From Candidatus Woesearchaeota archaeon (GTDB taxonomy: Archaea > Nanobdellota > Nanobdellia > Pacearchaeales > GW2011-AR1), in NCBI GenBank assembly GCA_964549155.1, contig CAZJUG010000005.1:1-36841 (forward strand): a stretch of 36,841 nucleotides of DNA, given 5' to 3'. Under the pieces are notes generated by a model, which ran no database searches, was not told where the DNA came from, and worked only from the letters and a program-made list of their open reading frames with translations. Of the stretch, positions 5,503 to 24,281 are shown piece by piece (positions within the stretch are counted from its first letter, which is position 1; the number at the start of each line of letters is the position of its first letter). A program made the position numbers and the translations under genes.

Positions 5503-5583
5503 CGCCCACTCCCAGAATCGAACTGGGGAGCCCCGAAGGGCCTGGATTTCAAGTCCAGTGCAATACCACTATGCGAAGTGGGC
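5503..5583 (-). tRNA. tRNA-Ser (anticodon UGA), 81 nt, long variable arm, no encoded CCA
   Basis: Manual cloverleaf on the minus strand: GCCCACT/AGTGGGC acceptor, CTGGA-CTTGAAA-TCCAG anticodon arm, GCCCTTCGGGGCTC variable arm, CCCAG-TTCGATT-CTGGG T arm. Confidence 0.85.
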
Positions 5584-5628
5584 ATGATAAATAGTTAGAA
5601 TTTATAGTTTTAAATGTTTGGTATTGCA
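5570..5628 (-). repeat. direct repeat copy A: A/T-rich promoter-like region plus first 13 nt of tRNA-Ser (belongs to the intact gene)
   Basis: About 58-59 bp identical to 5699-5757 by direct comparison. Contains TTTAAAACTATAAAT upstream of the tRNA 5' end (minus strand). Confidence 0.8.
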
Positions 5629-5698
5629 TAGTGCAATAACACTACTTTCAAAATAGGGGATTTCGATTTTGGAAGGACAGAAATTTTCTCAATTTCTG

Positions 5699-5757
5699 TA
5701 TGCGAAGTGGGCATGATAAATAGTTAGAATTTATAGTTTTAAATGTTTGGTATTGCA
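5699..5757 (-). repeat. direct repeat copy B: same promoter-like region plus tRNA-Ser nt 1-13, followed by a hairpin and a degenerate D-arm piece
   Basis: Identical to copy A at a 129-nt offset. On the minus strand it is followed by the hairpin ACAGAAAT-TGAGAAA-ATTTCTGT, then AGTAGTGTTATTGCACT (compare AGTGGTATTGCACT in the intact tRNA). Confidence 0.8.
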
Positions 5758-5772
5758 ACATATTTAACTAAT

Positions 5773-6315
5773 TTATTTAACAAACATTTCCAAATCTGCG
5801 ATTTGTTCTCTTTCATATGCTCTAAACTCTTTTCCCTGTTCTTGTGAGATTTTCAACTCTCTTACAATTTTTCTAATATTTTCATCTAGATTACCTTGAC
5901 CATATAAACCGAGAATACCCTCTCGAAGCTCTCTCAGGTTTCTATATCTTCCAAAACCTAATTCATGGTATTTGAGAGCATTATTTATTGTAGATAGCTC
6001 TTCTAAAAGTACTGGATAACTTCTAACTGCGGATTCCACTTTTTTAGGGTTTTTCTTGAATTTGAATAATCTATCAAATAAACCTCTTTTTGCATTGCAT
6101 GTATGGCCCAGCCTAATTAGTCCTCCAATAACCTGTTCCCTATGAGCTTCTAATCTTTCTTTTGAATACCTCAAGCAGTACAAAATCCCTCCCTTGGCTT
6201 GATTTGGTTCATCCAATGTAAAGTTATTCCAAAAGCAATCCCATGAATAGTCTTGCATAGATTTAGTCCTAAACGGGTGTTTAAAAGGATTATTATACAG
6301 AAAAACTAGGGTCAC
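5773..6315 (-). CDS. hypothetical protein (no family recognised)
   Basis: 180-aa ORF with no competing ORF. An internal ATG (MQDYSW, about 6258) is an alternative start. Confidence 0.55.
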   Translation of the reverse strand: MTLVFLYNNPFKHPFRTKSMQDYSWDCFWNNFTLDEPNQAKGGILYCLRYSKERLEAHREQVIGGLIRLGHTCNAKRGLFDRLFKFKKNPKKVESAVRSYPVLLEELSTINNALKYHELGFGRYRNLRELREGILGLYGQGNLDENIRKIVRELKISQEQGKEFRAYEREQIADLEMFVK

Positions 6316-6476
6316 AACCTCTCAAATTTGCTGATAATAATAGCACAACTACCTCCATCATTCAATTCAAGGTAGCCCCGAGCTAAACTAAACCAAGCCT
6401 AGTTTCATTCTCGGATGTAAGCAAACTGCAAAGCTAACTTAACTTCACAGTTCAACTAATCATAAAACTACTACGA

Positions 6477-6761
6477 TTAACCGAATAATGAAGCTAAGCC
6501 TTCAGCTGCTTCAGCCTTTGGCTCTTCTTTCTTCTTTTCTTCTTCCACTGGTGCTGCTCCGCTAGAAGCTGCTGGTGCTGATGCGATAGCCGCATTAGCC
6601 AACTGCTCGTCAATATTCACACCTGATAATGAAGCTACAAGGACTTTAACCTTGCTTTCATCAACAGCTGCGCCAGTTGCAGAGATAACTTTCTTCAAGT
6701 TGTCTTCGCTAACTTCTTGACCTAGTTTGTGCAACAAAAGTGCTGCATATATGTATTCCAT
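6477..6761 (-). CDS. rpl12: ribosomal stalk protein P1 (aL12)
   Basis: MEYIYAALLLH N-terminus, Ala/Glu/Lys-rich hinge and the canonical C-terminal EGLASLFG tail. Confidence 0.9.
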   Translation of the reverse strand: MEYIYAALLLHKLGQEVSEDNLKKVISATGAAVDESKVKVLVASLSGVNIDEQLANAAIASAPAASSGAAPVEEEKKKEEPKAEAAEGLASLFG

Positions 6762-7028
6762 TTATTGTGTTTCTCCAGTTTTAATTGGAGTTTGATATTT
6801 TTCTAAAACATTCATCACTTCATTATAAACAGGTTCATTAGCAGACAAACATAAGACAATACCTGTATCAATCTCAACATCTGAAAGTCTATGAGGTCTA
6901 GAAGATGCTTGTGTACGGATCTGCTCATAAAGTGCACCCCTAGAAATCATTTTTCCAGAATCTCCAAAGAGTTCTAGTTCTCCCGACTTTGCATGAAATC
7001 TATAATGTGTATTCTTTGGTAATCCCAT
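6762..7028 (-). CDS. hypothetical 88-aa protein inserted between the P0 and P1 genes
   Basis: 88 stop-free codons in an AT-rich context. Starts 2 nt after the P0 stop and ends immediately before the P1 start. No family recognised. Confidence 0.6.
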   Translation of the reverse strand: MGLPKNTHYRFHAKSGELELFGDSGKMISRGALYEQIRTQASSRPHRLSDVEIDTGIVLCLSANEPVYNEVMNVLEKYQTPIKTGETQ

Positions 7029-7030
7029 CT

Positions 7031-7864
7031 TTAATTCCCCCTCCCGACTTTAATTTCTTCCTTCGGAGCCTCTTCTTTCTTTTCTTCAACAACAATATCT
7101 TCTTTGATTAAACCATTTAATGCATTCTCATGTGCAACTGCCTTGCCTAATATGAATGGCATCGTTTCTTTGTTTAAGAAATCAATAGAAACAGCGAATG
7201 CTAAGCTTCTTGAATACTTCTCTAACAAATCTGCAAGTGTTCCCTTTTTGTCAATCTTAATTCCTACATAGACTTTTCCGTCAGAGAAGGCTGCAATAGG
7301 TTCTAAACCAATTTCAAAAGGAGTTATATCCAATTTTGCTAGAATAGAAACTTTTTCTGAAGAAATTTTTTCTCCTGCTTTAACAAATAGAGTATCTTTT
7401 GCAATTGCGATTTTTCCACCCTCAACTTTAGGTTGAAGACCCACAGCACTTAATGCAGAAATATCTGGACCTGGAGCAAGACTGGTTGGACCCGCCTTAA
7501 CCCAAATCTCTTCTGTAGCTTCTTGTCCCTCTCTTGCTTTTGCTGGAGCTTTATTATCTGCTAAAATCCCACTCAATTTAAATGCATCTTCATCTGAAAA
7601 TATCAAAGCATAATCTGAACTTATGTGAGGAACTAGTGCTTTGAACTCTTCATTCTTTGCATGCTCTAATGCAAAATCAATTAGACTTTTCTTTGCAACT
7701 TTTACAGCTGCAATATCCCTTATCTTTTTCTTTATATCCTGAAATTGAGCCGATTTCAAATTTTTAATTGAACAAACAAGAATAGTCTTTTTACTTAACA
7801 AAGAAGCCAAATCTTTCACAATTTGTTTTTTCTTTTCTGATATATGGGTCGATTTTTTAGCCAT
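7031..7864 (-). CDS. rplP0: ribosomal stalk protein P0 (uL10)
   Basis: Length, position between L1 and P1, and an L10/P0-like N-terminal domain. The C-terminus ends ...EEKKEEAPKEEIKVGRGN, without the GLxxLF tail. Confidence 0.85.
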   Translation of the reverse strand: MAKKSTHISEKKKQIVKDLASLLSKKTILVCSIKNLKSAQFQDIKKKIRDIAAVKVAKKSLIDFALEHAKNEEFKALVPHISSDYALIFSDEDAFKLSGILADNKAPAKAREGQEATEEIWVKAGPTSLAPGPDISALSAVGLQPKVEGGKIAIAKDTLFVKAGEKISSEKVSILAKLDITPFEIGLEPIAAFSDGKVYVGIKIDKKGTLADLLEKYSRSLAFAVSIDFLNKETMPFILGKAVAHENALNGLIKEDIVVEEKKEEAPKEEIKVGRGN

Positions 7865-18050: not shown

Positions 18051-19412
18051 CTAAATTTTCTTTAGCTGATAACCTTCTTTTGTATCCTTAATCTGCCAAC
18101 CTTCTTCTTTTAGCAAATCTCTCAATTCATCTGACTTTTTCCAATCTTTGTTTTCTCTAACTTTCTTTCTTTCTTCTGCAATTTTTCTTATTTCTTCAGG
18201 AATCTCAACTTCTTCTTTCTCAAAAAGTTTCAACCCCAAAACTTCATCCATTCTTCCTATAGTTTTATATTTCCCTTTTGCCTTTTCATCTCGGACTAAC
18301 TCCCAAAGAACTGCAAGAGCTTTTGGAGTGTTCAAATCATCATTCATTGCTTCGGCGAATTTCTCTAAATACTCTTTATTTATTTTTGAATCTTCTTGTA
18401 ATGAACCGCATATATTCTTGAGTTTTTTATAAGAAGTTTGTGCATTTTCTAATGCTTCTATTGAGAAATCTAAAGGCTTCCTATAAATTGTGTTTAAACA
18501 TAGATACCTGTAAGATAAAGAGAGAAAACCTTTTTCTTCTAGTTCCTCTAATGTATATAATCCCCCCTTAGACTTTGAAACCTTTTCTCCCTTGAATGTT
18601 AAAAACCCTGTATGCATCCAGTAGTTCACAAACTTTTTCCCTGTTGCTGCTTCGGATTGTGCAATCTCATTTTCATGGTGTGGAAATTTGTTATCTGCTC
18701 CACCAGTATGAATATCTATTGTTTCTCCTAAATGCTTCATAGACATTGCGGAACATTCTAAATGCCAGCCTGGAAAACCTCTTCCCCATGGAGAATCCCA
18801 TTCCTGCTGTCTTTTATCTTCAGGAAATGAAAATTTCCAAAGTGCAAAGTCTGTATTGTTCCTTTTCTCTTTCAATGTAACTCTTTTTCCAGCTTCAATA
18901 TTTTCTACATTTCCTGAGAGTTTTCCATAGTCTTTGAATTTAGAAGTATCAAAATAAATTCCATCTGAGGTTTTGTATGTAAATCCCTTTTTTTCTAAAA
19001 TCTTTAATAGTTCAATTTGTTCTGAGATATATTCGGTAGCTTTACACCAAATGTCTGGCTCTTGGATATTTAGTCTTTTGAAATCTTGCTTGAATGCTTC
19101 CCAATAGAAATTTGCAATGTCCTCGGCTCTCTTACCTTCTTTTGTAGCAGACTTCTCCATCTTATCTTCTCCCTCATCAGAATCTCCAGTCAGATGCCCT
19201 ACATCCGTAACATTCATGACTCTATTAACCTCGTAATCATTGAAAATTAATGTTCTAGTAAGAATATCTCCAAAAATATACCTAAGCATATTTCCTATAT
19301 GGGGGTAAGAATAAACCGTCGGCCCACATTCATAAAGTCTGACCTTTCCTTTCTCAATCGGTTTGAAAACTTCTTTTTTCCTTGATAGGGTGTTGTATAA
19401 CTTTAATACCAT
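18051..19412 (-). CDS. cysS: cysteinyl-tRNA synthetase
   Basis: HIGN (HIGH) and KVSKSKG (KMSKS) motifs. CGPTVY and WHLEC zinc-site motifs. Confidence 0.95.
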   Translation of the reverse strand: MVLKLYNTLSRKKEVFKPIEKGKVRLYECGPTVYSYPHIGNMLRYIFGDILTRTLIFNDYEVNRVMNVTDVGHLTGDSDEGEDKMEKSATKEGKRAEDIANFYWEAFKQDFKRLNIQEPDIWCKATEYISEQIELLKILEKKGFTYKTSDGIYFDTSKFKDYGKLSGNVENIEAGKRVTLKEKRNNTDFALWKFSFPEDKRQQEWDSPWGRGFPGWHLECSAMSMKHLGETIDIHTGGADNKFPHHENEIAQSEAATGKKFVNYWMHTGFLTFKGEKVSKSKGGLYTLEELEEKGFLSLSYRYLCLNTIYRKPLDFSIEALENAQTSYKKLKNICGSLQEDSKINKEYLEKFAEAMNDDLNTPKALAVLWELVRDEKAKGKYKTIGRMDEVLGLKLFEKEEVEIPEEIRKIAEERKKVRENKDWKKSDELRDLLKEEGWQIKDTKEGYQLKKI

Positions 19413-19466: not shown

Positions 19467-20033
19467 CTATTTTCCTGCAATAAAGTTCACATCCATAATC
19501 TGTGGAGAACCATAGGGCTCATCATTTGCCTTAGCAGATATTCTGAATCTAACTAAACAAAGAGGGTCTCCAATTTGAGTTTCAAATGTGACACGAGTAA
19601 CATAAGATTGACCACTCGCGATGGGAATTCCTTCTTCAGACTGCCCAACCGATATAAGACTCTCAATTTCTTCTTTGGTGTATCCATCACATTTCTCTGA
19701 AACTTTAGAATCGGAAACTTCAACAACATAGGAGAATGTTACATCTGAAGAAGCTCCACGCCTAAGGTTTGTTATTCCAATTCCAAATGCCGTAGGTTCT
19801 CCTTGCCGAACATCAATCTTTTTAGAACTTGGTGTGACTCCTATTTCTGTTTCCTTGCCATAAATATTTTTAAGTTCTTCCATCAGTTGATCATCGGTCA
19901 TTTTCAATGCATTCTCGGCTGAAGAAAATATATTCCTAATTAACATCAATCCCAAAATCAACATAGACATTGCCAAAACTATTACAACAATAGTGCTAAC
20001 ACTCAATTCCATTGCTGCTCTTTTGGACTTCAT
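19467..20033 (-). CDS. archaeal type IV pilin-like secreted protein (class III signal peptide candidate)
   Basis: MKSKRAAMELSVSTIVVIVLAMSMLILGL: basic residues, small residues, then a hydrophobic helix, followed by a beta-rich domain. Cleavage site not proven. Confidence 0.5.
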   Translation of the reverse strand: MKSKRAAMELSVSTIVVIVLAMSMLILGLMLIRNIFSSAENALKMTDDQLMEELKNIYGKETEIGVTPSSKKIDVRQGEPTAFGIGITNLRRGASSDVTFSYVVEVSDSKVSEKCDGYTKEEIESLISVGQSEEGIPIASGQSYVTRVTFETQIGDPLCLVRFRISAKANDEPYGSPQIMDVNFIAGK

Positions 20034-20266: not shown

Positions 20267-20319
20267 TCTACATTTTAGAGGTTTATAAAACTTATTCTTT
20301 TTGAAAAACTTCCTTTTAA

Positions 20320-20375
20320 TTTTATAAAGACTTAAAAAGCCAAGATTTATTTAATTCATTAAGGGGCTGTAGCTC
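20320..20375 (+). repeat. direct repeat copy 1: promoter-like region plus tRNA-Phe nt 1-13
   Basis: 56 bp (ttttataaagacttaaaaagccaagatttatttaattcattaaggggctgtagctc) identical to 20483-20538 at a 163-nt offset. Confidence 0.85.
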
Positions 20376-20468
20376 GACTCGAGATTTGCATCTCACAGAA
20401 TCGTCTTAAATTCTATTTTTGTTCTTGTTCGAAGCGAATCTCTCGGGAAGAGTGTCCGACTGAAGACC
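20363..20468 (+). pseudogene. truncated 5'-half copy of tRNA-Phe(GAA) interrupted after nt 13
   Basis: GGGGCTGTAGCTC, then a 69-nt insert, then GGGAAGAGTGTCCGACTGAAGACC (compare GGGAGAGCGTCCGGCTGAAGACC in the intact gene). The insert ends can pair (GAGATTTGC 20381-20389 with GCGAATCTC 20434-20442). No 3' anticodon-stem strand or T arm follows. Confidence 0.55.
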
Positions 20469-20482
20469 TCTTCAGCTATTCG

Positions 20483-20538
20483 TTTTATAAAGACTTAAAA
20501 AGCCAAGATTTATTTAATTCATTAAGGGGCTGTAGCTC
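20483..20538 (+). repeat. direct repeat copy 2 (belongs to the intact tRNA-Phe gene)
   Basis: Identical to 20320-20375. Confidence 0.85.
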
Positions 20539-20597
20539 ATTGGGAGAGCGTCCGGCTGAAGACCGGTAGGTAGGGAGTTCGATTCTCCCCAGCCCCA
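20526..20597 (+). tRNA. tRNA-Phe (anticodon GAA), 72 nt, no encoded CCA
   Basis: Manual cloverleaf: GGGGCTG/CAGCCCC acceptor, GCTC-ATTGGGA-GAGC D arm, TCCGG-CTGAAGA-CCGGT anticodon arm, GGGAG-TTCGATT-CTCCC T arm. Followed by a T-run. Confidence 0.9.
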
Positions 20598-20683: not shown

Positions 20684-20701
20684 CTCCCCAGCCCCATTTC
20701 T
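20684..20701 (+). repeat. duplicated 3'-terminal fragment of tRNA-Phe plus trailer
   Basis: ctccccagccccatttct is identical to 20585-20602 (99-nt offset). Isolated TTCGATT T-loop-like motifs at 20620-20626 and 20634-20640, and an inverted GAGAATCGAAC at 20608-20618. Confidence 0.7.
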
Positions 20702-20793
20702 ATTGAATCGAACGACCGAAGTAGGGAGCGAAAATTTCGCTTTGAATAAACTACTTTTATTCATGATTTTTATGAAATGCAAAATTTGAGTAG

Positions 20794-20818
20794 ATTCTCC
20801 CCACCTTTCTCCACTATG
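20794..20818 (+). repeat. left arm of a 25-bp perfect inverted repeat (partner inside the SplB-like radical-SAM ORF)
   Basis: attctccccacctttctccactatg is the exact reverse complement of 22479-22503. Similarity drops abruptly outside the 25-mer. Confidence 0.85.
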
Positions 20819-20850: not shown

Positions 20851-21366
20851 TTATTTAGTTTTTATTAGTCCGCCAACATAATTCCTAAAACAAACCTTAC
20901 TTCCATTAAAATGAATATTCTCTTCCCCAATGAACCCCTCTATGTCTCCTTTCCAATTGTTTTCATAACCCCAAGAACCTCTCTTAAGTTTTTTTGGACC
21001 TCTAGCAGGGAATTCTTTTGGAGGTTTACTAATACACTTTTTTAGAAAACTGAATGCTTTGTTGTGTAAATCTTCATATTTTTTAAAAACTCCTCCCCTA
21101 TAAGACATTACCCAAATAACCTTTCCATTCAAAAAAACTCTTTCTTGACCACAATCAATTAAATTCCCAAAATAAGTATCTGTATAGGTGTACTTTCCCT
21201 TTTTTACAATATAGGTTTTTCCGCCATCTTCTGTTTTTTTGGGTCTTGAAAAAAAAGAAGCATAGGTTTTCTTCTTTGCATAAGAAATAAAATTAATTAA
21301 TTCGTCATCCATTCTTTTATAGTGTGTACCACTCTTATTAAATCTTTTTATTGGAATGCTCTCCAA
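20851..21366 (-). CDS. DUF5680-like protein, paralog 1
   Basis: Shares with ORF 23135..23596 the pattern xLIxFxxxAKxKTxAS...Y.DxYFG...W.M...GG...FSFLKK...FP.RGP...G...Y.N.W.GD...F.GEE.I. DUF5680 assignment is from memory. Alternative start MDDELINF at 21312. Confidence 0.6.
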   Translation of the reverse strand: MESIPIKRFNKSGTHYKRMDDELINFISYAKKKTYASFFSRPKKTEDGGKTYIVKKGKYTYTDTYFGNLIDCGQERVFLNGKVIWVMSYRGGVFKKYEDLHNKAFSFLKKCISKPPKEFPARGPKKLKRGSWGYENNWKGDIEGFIGEENIHFNGSKVCFRNYVGGLIKTK

Positions 21367-21435
21367 ATTATAATAAATAATCTTATAATCACTCTGGAGG
21401 GGTACATTTAAATATACTAAAATCCTCTAAATTAA

Positions 21436-22341
21436 ATGAAGCACAGTATTATATGGAACATCACCCGGGCTTGTCCCTGGCATTGTGATTTTTGTTGTGT
21501 TGGAGCATTGTATGTTCCAAGAGAAGAACAGTCTCAACAAAAGAGACTAGAATCTCAAGGAATAGAACTTTCTTTAGATGAAAAACTGAGAATTGTAGAG
21601 AATTTAGATAACGATTGGTTTAAATTAGATGTATCTGGAGGGGAACCTCTTCTATTCGCCGATAATAGACATATAATCGAGAGGCTATCTTCAAAGTTGG
21701 GCAAGGAGAATCTTTCTGTAACATCTACTGGAAAAGGTCTTGAGTTAGTTAGCCCTGAATGGTTGCAAGACAATGTTTCTGAGGTGGGATTTACATATGA
21801 CTTTCCTAGAGAACATTCTCCAAATAGGCCTAAGGGATATAATCAATCTAATCTTAGTGCAATCAAGAATCTTGGTGGTACTGTCAGGACTATGGCCCAA
21901 ACTCCTTTGACTAGAGACAACTCAGATCCAGAAATTATTAGTGAGATTTATCAGAATTTGAAAGATGTAAATGTAGATACCCTTCTACTTATTGGACTTA
22001 AGGGGTCTGGCAGAGGTCATGGAAAAGAAAATTTGAATTTATCAAGAAAGGAGAGACTGAGGATAGTCAGGATCTACAAGGCCCAAGAGAGCCATTATAA
22101 TGGCCCAAAAATAAAATTAGCACCAAACTTATATGGCCCTCTTGTCGAGAAATTCGTTGGTTCATTTAATATAGATACTCAAGGAAGGCTATTGTCCAAT
22201 CCATGGTCCTATAATATAGATGGAACACCTTATGCAAGAGCCATAATGGGAGATTTAAAAAGTGAAAAGCTTTCTATTTTAGTAGGAAAATTGCTCCCTC
22301 AAGCATACTTAAGACAAGTAAAGAGGAATCTAGAAAAATGA
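21436..22341 (+). CDS. radical SAM enzyme, subfamily not recognised
   Basis: CPWHCDFC (CxxxCxxC) near the N-terminus and the SGGEPLLF SAM-binding motif. No SPASM-like C-terminal Cys cluster seen. Confidence 0.8.
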   Translation: MKHSIIWNITRACPWHCDFCCVGALYVPREEQSQQKRLESQGIELSLDEKLRIVENLDNDWFKLDVSGGEPLLFADNRHIIERLSSKLGKENLSVTSTGKGLELVSPEWLQDNVSEVGFTYDFPREHSPNRPKGYNQSNLSAIKNLGGTVRTMAQTPLTRDNSDPEIISEIYQNLKDVNVDTLLLIGLKGSGRGHGKENLNLSRKERLRIVRIYKAQESHYNGPKIKLAPNLYGPLVEKFVGSFNIDTQGRLLSNPWSYNIDGTPYARAIMGDLKSEKLSILVGKLLPQAYLRQVKRNLEK

Positions 22342-23138
22342 AAGTAACAAGAAAAGAAGTCAAGTCATTATTAACAAAAAGCAACTTGCCAGAAGCAGAT
22401 TATGTAATCAACCCTTACATCGGTTGTCAACATGGTTGTAGTTATTGCTATGCAGATTTTATGAAAAGATTCACTGGGCATAGTGGAGAAAGGTGGGGAG
22501 AATTTATAGATGTTAAAACAAATGGTCCTGAAACTATCAAAAGAGTCAAGCCAGGCTCTACAATCGTTATAGGTTCTGTAACTGATCCCTATCAACCAAT
22601 AGAAGCTAAGGAACAATTAACTAGAAGAACCCTTCAGCATCTTGTTCTACATCAACCAAGATTAGAAATAATTACAAAGTCTCCTTTAATTTTGAGAGAT
22701 GTTGATTTGTTAAAACAATTTAATAATCTCAAGGTCGGAATGTCTATCGGAATATTGAATGATGAGTATGCTAGAGAACTAGAACCTTATGCTCCCTCCC
22801 CAAGCAATAGGTTAGATGCATTAAGAAAATTACATAAGGAAGGAATTTTTACCTATTTGTTTATGTCTCCCATTCTTCCAGAGTTCTCTGAGATTGGGCC
22901 TTTAATAAAAAAAGCTAAAAGATTTGTAGATGAGATTTATTTTGAAAATTTGAATATAAGGGCAAATAACAGAAAGGCAGTTCTTGAATTTGTAGCTAAA
23001 CATAAACCAGAATTAGTTGAGTTCTATAAGGGATTATCTAAGAATAGAGAATATTGGGATAGAGTAGAAAGTCGGATTGTTGAGAAATGTAAATGTGATG
23101 GAATTAAATATCGTATGTTCTTTCATCACAGAAAATGA
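22338..23138 (+). CDS. radical SAM enzyme of the SplB / COG1533 (spore-photoproduct-lyase-like 'DNA repair photolyase') family
   Basis: NPYIGCQHGCSYCYADFMKRF is the hallmark N-terminal motif of this family. ATGA overlap with both neighbours. Confidence 0.8.
   Translation: MKVTRKEVKSLLTKSNLPEADYVINPYIGCQHGCSYCYADFMKRFTGHSGERWGEFIDVKTNGPETIKRVKPGSTIVIGSVTDPYQPIEAKEQLTRRTLQHLVLHQPRLEIITKSPLILRDVDLLKQFNNLKVGMSIGILNDEYARELEPYAPSPSNRLDALRKLHKEGIFTYLFMSPILPEFSEIGPLIKKAKRFVDEIYFENLNIRANNRKAVLEFVAKHKPELVEFYKGLSKNREYWDRVESRIVEKCKCDGIKYRMFFHHRK
22479..22503 (+). repeat. right arm of the 25-bp perfect inverted repeat (codons for HSGERWGE)
   Basis: catagtggagaaaggtggggagaat is the reverse complement of 20794-20818. 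Confidence 0.85.
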
Positions 23139-23596
23139 ATCTAATTGAATTTTTAGCAAAAGCTAAGATTAAAACTTTTGCATCCCAATTTTCTATTCCA
23201 AAAGGAATCTTAACAGGAAATAAAAGATATGAGTATTCTGAAGGAGACTTTGAATATTTGGATTCCTATTTTGGGTATACCAGGGACCAAAGTACAGAAA
23301 CTATAAAGTTTCAAGGAGAGGAAGTTTGGAAAATGCGATCTCAGGGAGGAATGAGTCCCGGATTAGAGAGAGAAGCGAGAAGATGTTTCTCTTTTTTAAA
23401 AAAAGCTTTAAGAAATACCTCCGCCGATTTCCCAGTTAGGGGACCAAGACAATTTAGAAAAGGCCACTTACTCTACCTAAACGAATGGAAGGGGGATCTT
23501 CAGGAATTTGAAGGAGAAGAGAAGATTTTCTGGTTAGAGAAGGTAATTTATTCACGAACATATTCTGGAGGAACAGTCAGAAAACAAGGCCTCTAA
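23135..23596 (+). CDS. DUF5680-like protein, paralog 2
   Basis: Alignable by eye along its length with the ORF at 20851..21366. ATGA overlap with the upstream radical-SAM gene. Confidence 0.6.
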   Translation: MNLIEFLAKAKIKTFASQFSIPKGILTGNKRYEYSEGDFEYLDSYFGYTRDQSTETIKFQGEEVWKMRSQGGMSPGLEREARRCFSFLKKALRNTSADFPVRGPRQFRKGHLLYLNEWKGDLQEFEGEEKIFWLEKVIYSRTYSGGTVRKQGL

Positions 23597-23720: not shown

Positions 23721-23758
23721 AGTGGGATTTTCATCCCACTATAAGTAAGAAATAGGCC
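23721..23758 (-). repeat. second copy of the RNase P RNA 3'-terminal module (P1 3' strand + 8-bp GNRA-loop hairpin)
   Basis: Minus strand reads GGCCTATTTCTTACTT-AT-AGTGGGAT-GAAA-ATCCCACT. The 16-mer (23743-23758) is identical to 23897-23912. The hairpin has the same shape as the one after the RNase P RNA but a different sequence. Confidence 0.7.
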
Positions 23759-23896
23759 ACGAGTTACTTTTCTTTCACAAAGAAAAGTTTCTCTAAATCA
23801 AAAGAAACTTTGTTTAGGGTTTCAAAAATAAGAAATTTTTTAAACTAATTATTAACAGAAAGCGAAATCATTAATCGGGAGTTTACACTCCCGAGC

Positions 23897-24281
23897 AAGT
23901 AAGAAATAGGCCGCTTTCTGTCAGACTTTGTCCGAAGACAAACAGTCTGTGCCAACATCCGACTAAGCCCACGCAAGATTTGTGGTTTCATCAACCAAGG
24001 CATCTGTTTCAGCATTTCTCTTCATCAACATCAGTTGCTTCCCTTGAGAGTTTTTTGACATTACTGCCAATCACTTTTCAAGGCCAACATCATTTAAGAT
24101 GAGAGCTGTGTCATTTCTGTTATGGAGCTCTGCCTTACGACAGTCCTTTTACAAGGATGGTTTCTTTTGATTGCTTCCATTCAAGGAAACAAGATGTGCG
24201 GACCTTCCTCAGAATTCAAGATTGATTTTTACAATCTTTAGGCTATTAACCCTGAATCCCGAAATTGGCTATCTTACTTAC
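23897..24281 (-). ncRNA. rnpB: RNase P RNA (archaeal type-A-like), about 385 nt
   Basis: Minus strand carries CTGAGGAAGGTCCGCAC (CR-I-like, consensus GAGGAAAGUCCGGGC) and GACAGAAAGCGGCCTAT (CR-V-like, consensus ACAGAAnnnGGCUUA). The 5' GTAAGTAAGATAGCC pairs with the 3' GGCCTATTTCTTACTT as P1. Ends are approximate. Confidence 0.8.

Follow-up and report, generated by a model that had tools for sequence, protein, structure and literature searches.

A three-gene cassette of two radical SAM enzymes and a DUF5680 protein in a variable interval between the RNase P RNA and tRNA-Phe genes of a Woesearchaeota archaeon

Why should two radical S-adenosylmethionine (SAM) enzymes lie side by side between two stable-RNA genes of a very small DPANN archaeon, and which of the genes around them belong with them? 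The question is raised by a 36,841-nucleotide (nt) stretch of DNA from Candidatus Woesearchaeota archaeon (assembly GCA_964549155.1, contig CAZJUG010000005.1), which at its full length is called the window here. The window is archaeal, has a GC content of about 33%, and carries an archaeal RNase P RNA, a 5S rRNA and a tRNA-Phe among its genes. Between tRNA-Phe and RNase P RNA are four open reading frames (ORFs), at the positions given in an initial annotation made from the letters alone. Three are on the plus strand: the radical SAM (rSAM) genes rSAM-1 (21436-22341; 301 amino acids, aa) and rSAM-2 (22338-23138; 266 aa), followed by DUF5680-B (23135-23596; 153 aa). The fourth, DUF5680-A (20851-21366 as first read, but most likely 20851-21312; 153 aa), is on the minus strand. 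All four have many homologs, so that none is a chance ORF. The initial annotation treated the four genes as a paired rSAM cassette with duplicated partners. We find instead that the conserved unit consists of three genes, rSAM-1, rSAM-2 and DUF5680-B, and that DUF5680-A has a different origin.

In the window the three plus-strand genes form a translationally coupled operon, joined as originally described by ATGA overlaps, at 22338-22341 (rSAM-1/rSAM-2) and 23135-23138 (rSAM-2/DUF5680-B). Is the linkage conserved? Wherever the contig around an rSAM-1 gene was long enough, an rSAM-2 ortholog and a DUF5680 gene come after it; the trio thus stands in identical order and on one strand in 12 distinct loci besides the window, with the genes mostly overlapping. 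These loci are assigned to Pacearchaeota, Woesearchaeota and Patescibacteria, together with one 141-kb Bacteroidota contig and one short "Clostridia" contig from a metagenome-assembled genome (MAG). Each has a single DUF5680 gene, and bracketing of the enzymes by two of them is unique to the window. The expectation of conserved linkage in other genomes thus holds for three genes and fails for the four-gene unit. All three proteins give congruent matrices of pairwise identity. In one metagenome contig (L116) the two enzymes are fused in a 580-aa protein (6109-7851, minus strand), with an rSAM-1 domain at residues 2-289 (E 5e-46) and an rSAM-2 domain at 315-580 (E 5e-89), and a 153-aa DUF5680 protein (5577-6038, minus strand) follows. 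The same contig also encodes a CysS 54% identical to that of the window. We regard it as highly probable that the three genes function together as one mobile module.

The operon is a self-contained, horizontally mobile cassette. An all-against-all comparison of the genes within 5 kb of the trio at the 13 loci found no shared neighbors, which rules out an additional recurrent cassette gene. The Patescibacteria trio (L004/L018) and a Woesearchaeota trio (L022) are 74-79%, 84% and 87% identical in the three proteins, above most archaeon-to-archaeon values, and their flanks are unrelated. Provided that the MAG bins are correctly assigned, these trios are a clean candidate for a recent inter-domain transfer of the complete unit. 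The genes that adjoin the trio vary. An IS240 transposase abuts it in L022, genes of an ABC-3C system (DUF2326 plus MC6/MC7) adjoin it in L001, and a ferredoxin gene lies upstream of it in L005; a CYTH gene adjoins an rSAM-1-family gene in L029. The distribution is sparse: a collection of 5.8 billion proteins holds 44 clusters of close rSAM-1 homologs, all from MAGs of DPANN/CPR type, and the few source names among them are Pacearchaeota, "archaeon" and Patescibacteria. A virus-borne cassette was considered and rejected, as IMG/VR holds no relatives of rSAM-1 or DUF5680 and DUF5680 has no PHROG match.

How, then, did the window come to have a second DUF5680 gene? The initial annotation noted that the two small proteins align along their length yet are clearly diverged, and this is borne out by an identity of 39% over 147 residues; both carry an internal repeat. 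It is their relationship that must be revised. DUF5680-A shares 65-77% identity with DPANN proteins of 153-155 aa that form a large solo clade, and DUF5680-B is 45-56% identical to rSAM-linked DUF5680 proteins. A neighbor-joining tree separates the solo clade, with A, from the rSAM-linked clade, with B, and a local duplication is thereby ruled out. Judged by these comparisons, DUF5680-A is the ortholog of a solo DPANN gene of unrelated context, lying inside the inserted segment but outside the conserved cassette. Since A belongs to the solo clade, the bracketing by two paralogs came about by chance in this genome or, at most, through recruitment within its lineage.

The solo genes have a setting of their own. 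Typically they overlap and follow the gene of a 185-189-aa protein with a weak helix-turn-helix (HTH)/UPF0175-like C-terminus, and the pair adjoins genes for PIN_9, Rpb7, Spt4, S24e and sometimes fibrillarin/Nop5. A DUF3368 (PIN-like) gene is often near the pair (L008-L013, L129-L131), in what is a conserved DPANN operon. The closest homolog of DUF5680-A (77%) lies between genes for a PNO1-like KH protein and enolase. None of the solo loci inspected has a cassette-type rSAM gene adjoining the DUF5680 gene. Conversely, tblastn found neither the HTH partner nor its downstream gene within the window. DUF5680-A in the window is a relocated solo-type gene.

The reading frame of DUF5680-A could be extended to a TTG at 21366 (20851-21366), but the start is most likely the internal ATG at 21312, in agreement with the gene as called in the database (P0056) and with the homologs at 65-77% identity, all of 153-155 aa. 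With this start the divergent spacer (21313-21435) is about 123 bp, against the 69 bp first reported; its A/T-richness and the divergent orientation of the genes stand. Within it a TATA-box-like TTTAAATATA, about 20 nt upstream of the rSAM-1 ATG, may be a promoter element of rSAM-1.

Is the segment an insertion, as the initial annotation supposed? We compared the window with 80 metagenomic loci that encode CysS relatives 50-69% identical to its own. A pilin-like gene lies upstream of CysS, as in the window, in 26 of the 80, and the same-strand order RNase P RNA, tRNA-Phe, pilin-like gene, CysS is found in five. The gap from RNase P RNA to tRNA-Phe in the five is 46, 144, 399, 710 and 911 nt, against 3297 nt in the window, where it holds DUF5680-A and the trio and where tRNA-Phe is inverted relative to most syntenic relatives. 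Neither a DUF5680 gene nor the cassette rSAM genes are present in the gap of the syntenic loci; among the 80 only L116 has these genes, in a different arrangement. The comparison shows that the segment with DUF5680-A and the trio is an insertion relative to these relatives, much as had been proposed. The longer gaps in relatives hold unrelated small genes that differ from locus to locus (L048, L054, L079, L081, L083), for example an unrelated 358-aa radical SAM protein (L081) and a 171-aa protein (L048). The zone from RNase P RNA to the pilin-like gene therefore behaves as an insertion hot spot, and the cassette lies in this variable interval alongside DUF5680-A.

Both edges of the segment carry short repeats. 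On the left, tRNA-Phe(GAA) (20526-20597, plus strand) is followed, 99 nt downstream, by an 18-nt exact copy of its 3' end, CTCCCCAGCCCCATTTCT, at 20684-20701 (plus strand; 2 matches against 0.01 expected by chance), an att-like scar. Upstream, the tRNA-Phe promoter and first 13 nt are duplicated (63 nt at 95%; 20313-20375 versus 20476-20538), and the upstream duplicate runs into a degenerate D-arm/anticodon fragment, where 20446-20468 resembles 20542-20564. This duplicate is a decayed 5'-half tRNA-Phe pseudogene that immediately precedes the intact gene. The right boundary is the RNase P RNA gene (23895-24281, minus strand), and a 16-nt exact copy, AAGTAAGAAATAGGCC, of its 3' end (23897-23912) lies 154 nt towards the cassette, at 23743-23758 (plus strand), mirroring the tRNA-Phe duplication on the other side. 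At 20791-20818 (plus strand), in the stretch from the tRNA-Phe scar to the stop codon of DUF5680-A, a piece from inside rSAM-2 (22479-22506, coding HSGERWGEF) is repeated in inverted orientation, 28 nt at 96% with 25 nt exact (E 8e-9). Possibly it is a recombination scar, or, if transcribed with the tRNA, an antisense to the rSAM-2 mRNA. There is no integrase in the 3.3-kb insert. As a general rule, tRNA-targeted integration is ruled out: only 2 of the 12 other loci have a tRNA in the flanks that were fetched, and only in L022 is it beside the cassette.

What kinds of enzymes does the cassette encode? For rSAM-2 the initial assignment, SplB/COG1533-like with the motif NPYIGCQHGCSYCYA, agrees with our searches. 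Pfam finds Radical_SAM, as it does in rSAM-1. The PA0069 family matches rSAM-2 at 148 bits and the Rv2578c family at 121 bits, and spore photoproduct lyase (SPL) is the nearest solved structure to the rSAM-2 family profile (E 1e-3). The family scores all lie below the respective cut-offs, and the SPL model TIGR04070 gives 22.3 bits against a cut-off of 400. Compared with these named enzymes, rSAM-2 is shorter and is always coupled to rSAM-1 and DUF5680. Its only invariant cysteines are the three of the cluster, with G, S or V aligned at the SPL donor region, so that the conserved fourth cysteine is missing. The enzyme also matches phrog_13321 (E 2e-51), and both Acidianus two-tailed virus and fragments of gut phages have homologs.

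The closest named relative is protein B of the "radical SAM mobile pair" (TIGR04471, protein A; TIGR04470, protein B), an annotated but uncharacterised system of plasmids and mobile elements, on which we found nothing in the literature under that name or under either accession. TIGR04470 matches rSAM-2 over its full length, at 220.4 bits against a cut-off of 410, and other cassette copies at 238-257 bits; rSAM-2 is 41-42% identical to annotated proteins B on Bacteroides and Clostridium plasmids. By sequence, rSAM-2 is thus a COG1533/SPL-superfamily enzyme that is sister to mobile pair protein B. The two systems share much. Both consist of two adjacent same-strand rSAM genes, the second of COG1533 type, and rSAM-2 has the protein B motifs TKSxLP, NPYxGCxHxCxYCYAxFMxRFTGH, SVTDPYQPxE and ENLN; the mobile context is also common to both, the cassette being inserted, without shared flanks and 74-87% identical across domains. 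They differ in their first enzyme, in their neighbors and in their hosts. Protein A has 222 aa, whereas the cassette rSAM-1 is a 300-aa COG0535/viperin-fold protein that is not homologous to it: the hhalign probability of 18.5% rules out that rSAM-1 is a divergent protein A, and TIGR04471, on which a bona fide protein A scores 456 bits, is not among the best 25 of the 30 families listed for rSAM-1. A Bacteroides record of the mobile pair (H4) has an MBL-fold hydrolase and AraC regulators where the cassette has DUF5680, and the cassette hosts are DPANN archaea and Candidate Phyla Radiation (CPR) bacteria. By their profile criteria the module falls outside the viperin, SPL and mobile pair families alike. 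The most fitting description is of a new variant among mobile two-rSAM systems, which are themselves uncharacterised.

Might the module, as is suspected for the plasmid-borne mobile pair, confer resistance to an antibiotic or detoxify a xenobiotic? The hydrolase and regulators beside the closest named rSAM-2 relatives on Bacteroides plasmids would suit this idea, as would a Lnu/ANT(2'')-like nucleotidyltransferase that is translationally coupled upstream of the trio in L001-L003, and the bleomycin-resistance/glyoxalase and efflux genes near bacterial solo DUF5680 genes. These links are links of neighborhood alone, however, each confined to one lineage; the nucleotidyltransferase match is about 25 bits and covers the catalytic core only, and neither a regulator nor a hydrolase is present in the window or the other cassette loci. 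We think a resistance role very improbable.

The first enzyme, rSAM-1, is harder to place. Its CPWHCDFC(C) motif is as first described, and belongs to a family signature comprising an invariant CxxxCxxCC, a GGxP SAM motif, FTYD, GRG and LLLSNPW(S/A)Y; the only invariant or nearly invariant basic residues are K50, K87, R131 and R193. The family alignment has no conserved cysteines beyond CxxxCxxCC, and so none for auxiliary clusters. Pfam reports Radical_SAM only, without SPASM (PF13186). The best NCBIfam match is the viperin family NF038283, with 34.3 bits against a cut-off of 180 and over residues 4-125 only; the two PADLOC models for prokaryotic viperins (pVip), the better of which is also the top PADLOC profile, give 34.3 and 23.7 bits, again in the N-terminal part alone. 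Profile matches in the PDB are to Tes, MoaA and viperin (E 1e-6 to 1e-4). The predicted structure is more pointed. Foldseek searches with an AlphaFold2 (AF2) model of pLDDT 91 return viperins in all of the top five places (E 1.6e-11, for 6q2q, to 1.5e-10; query TM-score 0.54-0.63), and at rank 7 a T. virens viperin-like enzyme with a query TM-score of 0.67; DesII, SuiB, BlsE and MoaA come later, and PqqE is also among the matches. Thus rSAM-1 is predicted to be a viperin-type partial TIM-barrel without auxiliary Fe-S clusters. In viperins, which are ddhNTP synthases of prokaryotes and eukaryotes, and in DesII, BlsE and MoaA, hydrogen is abstracted from the sugar of a nucleotide-linked substrate.

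Likeness in fold does not make rSAM-1 a viperin. It is only 14-17% identical to viperins, the profile match is limited to the N-terminal SAM core, and it differs in its CxxxCxxCC motif, in a C-terminal region of its own (SLNIT..GLLLSNPWSY), and in its obligate pairing, or fusion, with another rSAM enzyme, a feature that viperins lack. Membership among bona fide viperins, MoaA or NirJ is ruled out by scores far below the cut-offs. So is a SPASM/RiPP (ribosomally synthesized and post-translationally modified peptide) maturase, there being no SPASM domain, no conserved C-terminal cysteines and no precursor ORF, for which the overlapping cassette genes leave no room. The initial annotation had left the placement of rSAM-1 to profile and structure searches. 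The outcome is that rSAM-1 belongs to a small distinct family outside any housekeeping family, with a viperin-like predicted fold but not viperin membership. In an exhaustive hidden Markov model search of 1.84 billion representatives the core family had no more than about six clusters; the wider family has about 96 at E<=1e-30 and up to 408 at E<=1e-10. Wider-family bacterial homologs keep C-terminal cysteines and weak SPASM matches.

Two members of that wider family are telling. In P0188 (L132, 8001-12224) a TIR domain and HEAT repeats, and in P0190 (L133, 1152-5600) an AAA_16 (STAND) NTPase and HEAT repeats, precede a C-terminal rSAM-1-family domain; these proteins of 1407-1482 aa keep all the rSAM-1 signature motifs. 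Such TIR/STAND-HEAT architectures are typical of bacterial NLR-like conflict systems. A PfkB-family kinase gene overlaps that of P0188 upstream, a duplicated ThyX faces it, and a second TIR protein, E1/JAB and type IV secretion system genes are nearby, on a contig that resembles a conjugative element; a ThyX homolog, 59% identical to that of P0188, flanks P0190 as well. The two giants are kin to the window rSAM-1 as members of the wider family (about 210 bits, versus more than 400 within the core), and the window enzyme stands alone, without NTPase, TIR or repeats. These architectures and neighbors, together with the CYTH gene in L029 and the Lnu/ANT-like nucleotidyltransferase gene upstream in L001 beside other family members, point to nucleotide chemistry. 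Relatives of rSAM-1, like viperins, have genes for kinases and nucleotide metabolism as neighbors and occur within architectures of immune type.

The characterised or regulated members of the SPL/COG1533 superfamily have DNA pyrimidines as their target or respond when DNA is damaged. Taken with the fold of rSAM-1, this makes a nucleotide, perhaps a pyrimidine nucleotide, or a nucleic acid the most likely substrate of the pair. Could the module simply be one for DNA repair or damage tolerance? In such a scheme rSAM-2 would reverse a pyrimidine radical or cross-link lesion in the manner of SPL, rSAM-1 would treat a sugar-centred lesion or activate its partner, and DUF5680 would bind damaged DNA, as an accessory system under UV, desiccation or radicals. 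SPL is the only solved relative of rSAM-2; COG1533 SplB-like genes are reported to be SOS/LexA-regulated in several phyla (PMC8565304), and Rv2578c carries a LexA site (PMC3381160). All three cassette proteins are basic (pI 8.4-9.7), though a high pI is commonplace in low-GC genomes. The very low score of rSAM-2 on the SPL model and the missing cysteine at the SPL donor position speak against repair, the distribution is very sparse for such a function, and neither the TIR/STAND fusions of the rSAM-1 family nor the membrane-protein variants of the operon, considered below, fit it. We judge repair unlikely.

Distant rSAM-1 homologs (28-34% identity) in Treponema, Lachnospiraceae, Brooklawnia, Caulobacterales, L134 and others keep an rSAM-2-type partner, and their operons tell a different story. 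DUF5680 is absent. Usually the gene of a polytopic membrane protein, itself conserved, stands between the two rSAM genes, and after them comes one for a DHO_dh/PreA-like flavoprotein that carries two 4Fe-4S motifs. The membrane protein has 10 transmembrane segments and an invariant HYFxYCY motif, belongs to no Pfam family (L025, L031, L034, L036-L038) and shows no similarity to DUF5680, of which it is therefore not a relative. A further variant has two unknown genes between the rSAM genes and an adjoining DDE transposase. Is the common theme, then, a two-step radical biosynthesis or salvage of a small molecule, such as a modified nucleoside or base, a cofactor or an antibiotic-like metabolite, with DUF5680 as carrier or binder and the product exported or membrane-associated in bacteria? 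The added membrane protein and flavoprotein speak for it, as do a GT2 gene and a MatE efflux pump in L025 and the ferredoxin gene in L005, and two fold neighbors of rSAM-1, DesII and BlsE, are natural-product enzymes. The DPANN/CPR cassette, however, has three genes only and lacks transporters, tailoring enzymes and recurrent neighbors. The bacterial variants make a metabolite pathway plausible, but at about 30% identity in rSAM-1 their function may have diverged, and for the cassette itself a small-molecule pathway seems rather unlikely.

What of the third gene? That the small proteins belong to DUF5680, as first proposed, is clear: over the full 104-position profile of PF18931, with a gathering score of 25, A scores 81.3 bits (E 8e-23) and B 83.1 bits (E 2e-23). 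We found no functional account of DUF5680 in the literature, only one incidental mention. An AF2 model of DUF5680-B (pLDDT 92.8) has two repeats, each of one helix and a four-strand meander, that match the internal sequence repeat and bear an invariant Y-x-[DN]-x-[YW]-x-G ... Y-x-G-G pattern. No known fold could be assigned, since neither the PDB nor BFVD gave a significant structural match and sequence profiles gave none either. About 20 of the top 50 weak PDB fold matches are to chorismate-lyase/UTRA ligand-binding domains, which bind small molecules and would suit a metabolite carrier, but these are sub-threshold (best E 0.012, TM-score 0.24-0.30) and a hint only. The family extends well beyond the cassette: it has 478 clusters against 44 for rSAM-1, and most of its genes have no rSAM neighbor. 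In bacteria DUF5680 genes are solo, encode about 150-158 aa, and occur on plasmids of the Bacillus cereus group and Rahnella, near SMI1/KNR4, AbrB and insertion sequence elements in addition to the resistance and efflux genes mentioned above. Among some 130 DUF5680 proteins inspected (120 listed DPANN and 10 plasmid matches) none has another domain, so the notion, which the initial annotation had put up for checking, that the family is usually fused to HTH domains is ruled out.

The strict co-transfer and co-evolution of DUF5680 with the enzymes allows the thought that it is their substrate. One or both rSAM enzymes would modify an invariant site of DUF5680-B, for instance its R-G-P loop or the Y-x-G-G at its C-terminus; alternatively, another protein would be presented by DUF5680 for modification. 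The 21 invariant residues of DUF5680, which include RGP and YxGG, and the presence of the SPASM-type peptide maturases SuiB and PqqE among the fold matches of rSAM-1 are compatible with this. But rSAM-1 has no SPASM, twitch or RRE domain, a precursor-peptide ORF is lacking, and DUF5680 is dispensed with in the distant rSAM-1/rSAM-2 operons and the TIR/STAND fusions, just as most DUF5680 genes do without an rSAM neighbor. Protein modification is accordingly improbable. More probably, we infer, DUF5680-B is an accessory subunit without enzyme activity, serving to bind substrate or product, to regulate or to give self-protection.

We are thus led to the following proposal. The two enzymes would work as one physical and functional unit. 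Each would use a [4Fe-4S] cluster and SAM to generate a 5'-deoxyadenosyl radical, and together they would carry out two radical steps on one substrate. The viperin/DesII/BlsE/MoaA-type fold of rSAM-1, without auxiliary clusters, would suit it for chemistry of the nucleotide-sugar type, and DUF5680-B would stand beside the enzymes as the accessory just described. The patchy distribution, the transfer across domains, the insertion hot spot and the TIR/STAND-fused relatives of rSAM-1 make a role in conflict, antiviral or competitive, the most likely one. The chain as a whole, from paired enzymes acting on a nucleotide or nucleic acid to a DUF5680 accessory and a conflict role, is the one we favor, tentatively and without calling it probable. 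A more explicit version is possible but doubtful: that the module is a hitherto unrecognised immune or conflict effector, a heteromeric and sometimes fused pair of viperin-fold and SPL-like enzymes that converts a pyrimidine nucleotide or attacks nucleic acid and so blocks invading genomes, with DUF5680 as sensor or self-protection, exchanged between DPANN and CPR, and with rSAM-1 recruited as an effector domain of TIR/STAND NLR-like proteins.

Several observations weigh against this proposal. The rSAM-1 protein fails the viperin profiles beyond its N-terminal core, its sequence-level matches are generic (Tes, MoaA, SkfB), and no PADLOC defence model was matched above noise. None of the 2.9 million viral contigs of IMG/VR has an rSAM-1 or DUF5680 relative. 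Several cassette loci lie among housekeeping genes, which is to be expected in tiny genomes and is no positive sign of defence. The bacterial variants, with their polytopic membrane protein and PreA/DHODH-like Fe-S flavoprotein, are no less compatible with a diffusible metabolite than with DNA. Further, the nucleotide and defence function is one we infer from sequences and a predicted structure, and the role given to DUF5680 is a guess.

What would follow if the proposal held? Obligate rSAM pairs that act on nucleotides or nucleic acids are rare, and the coupling of a viperin-fold enzyme to an SPL-like one would define new radical chemistry. Little is known of the defences of DPANN archaea and CPR bacteria, to which the module could add effectors of a new class, antiviral or competitive, and it would offer a first functional handle on DUF5680, on the radical SAM mobile pair and on the SOS-regulated rSAM enzymes of COG1533. 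The giant TIR/STAND-HEAT-rSAM proteins tie the rSAM-1 family to NLR-like systems.

Two features beside the insert may be added. The pilin-like protein (19467-20033, minus strand; 188 aa), next to CysS (18051-19412, minus strand), has no Pfam match, but its N-terminus is hydrophobic in the way usual for archaeal type IV pilin-like signal peptides. The RNase P RNA scores 89 bits, against a gathering score of 84 and 106-152 bits for relatives; its 387 nt are matched to a model of 288 positions, and it seems to contain insertions.

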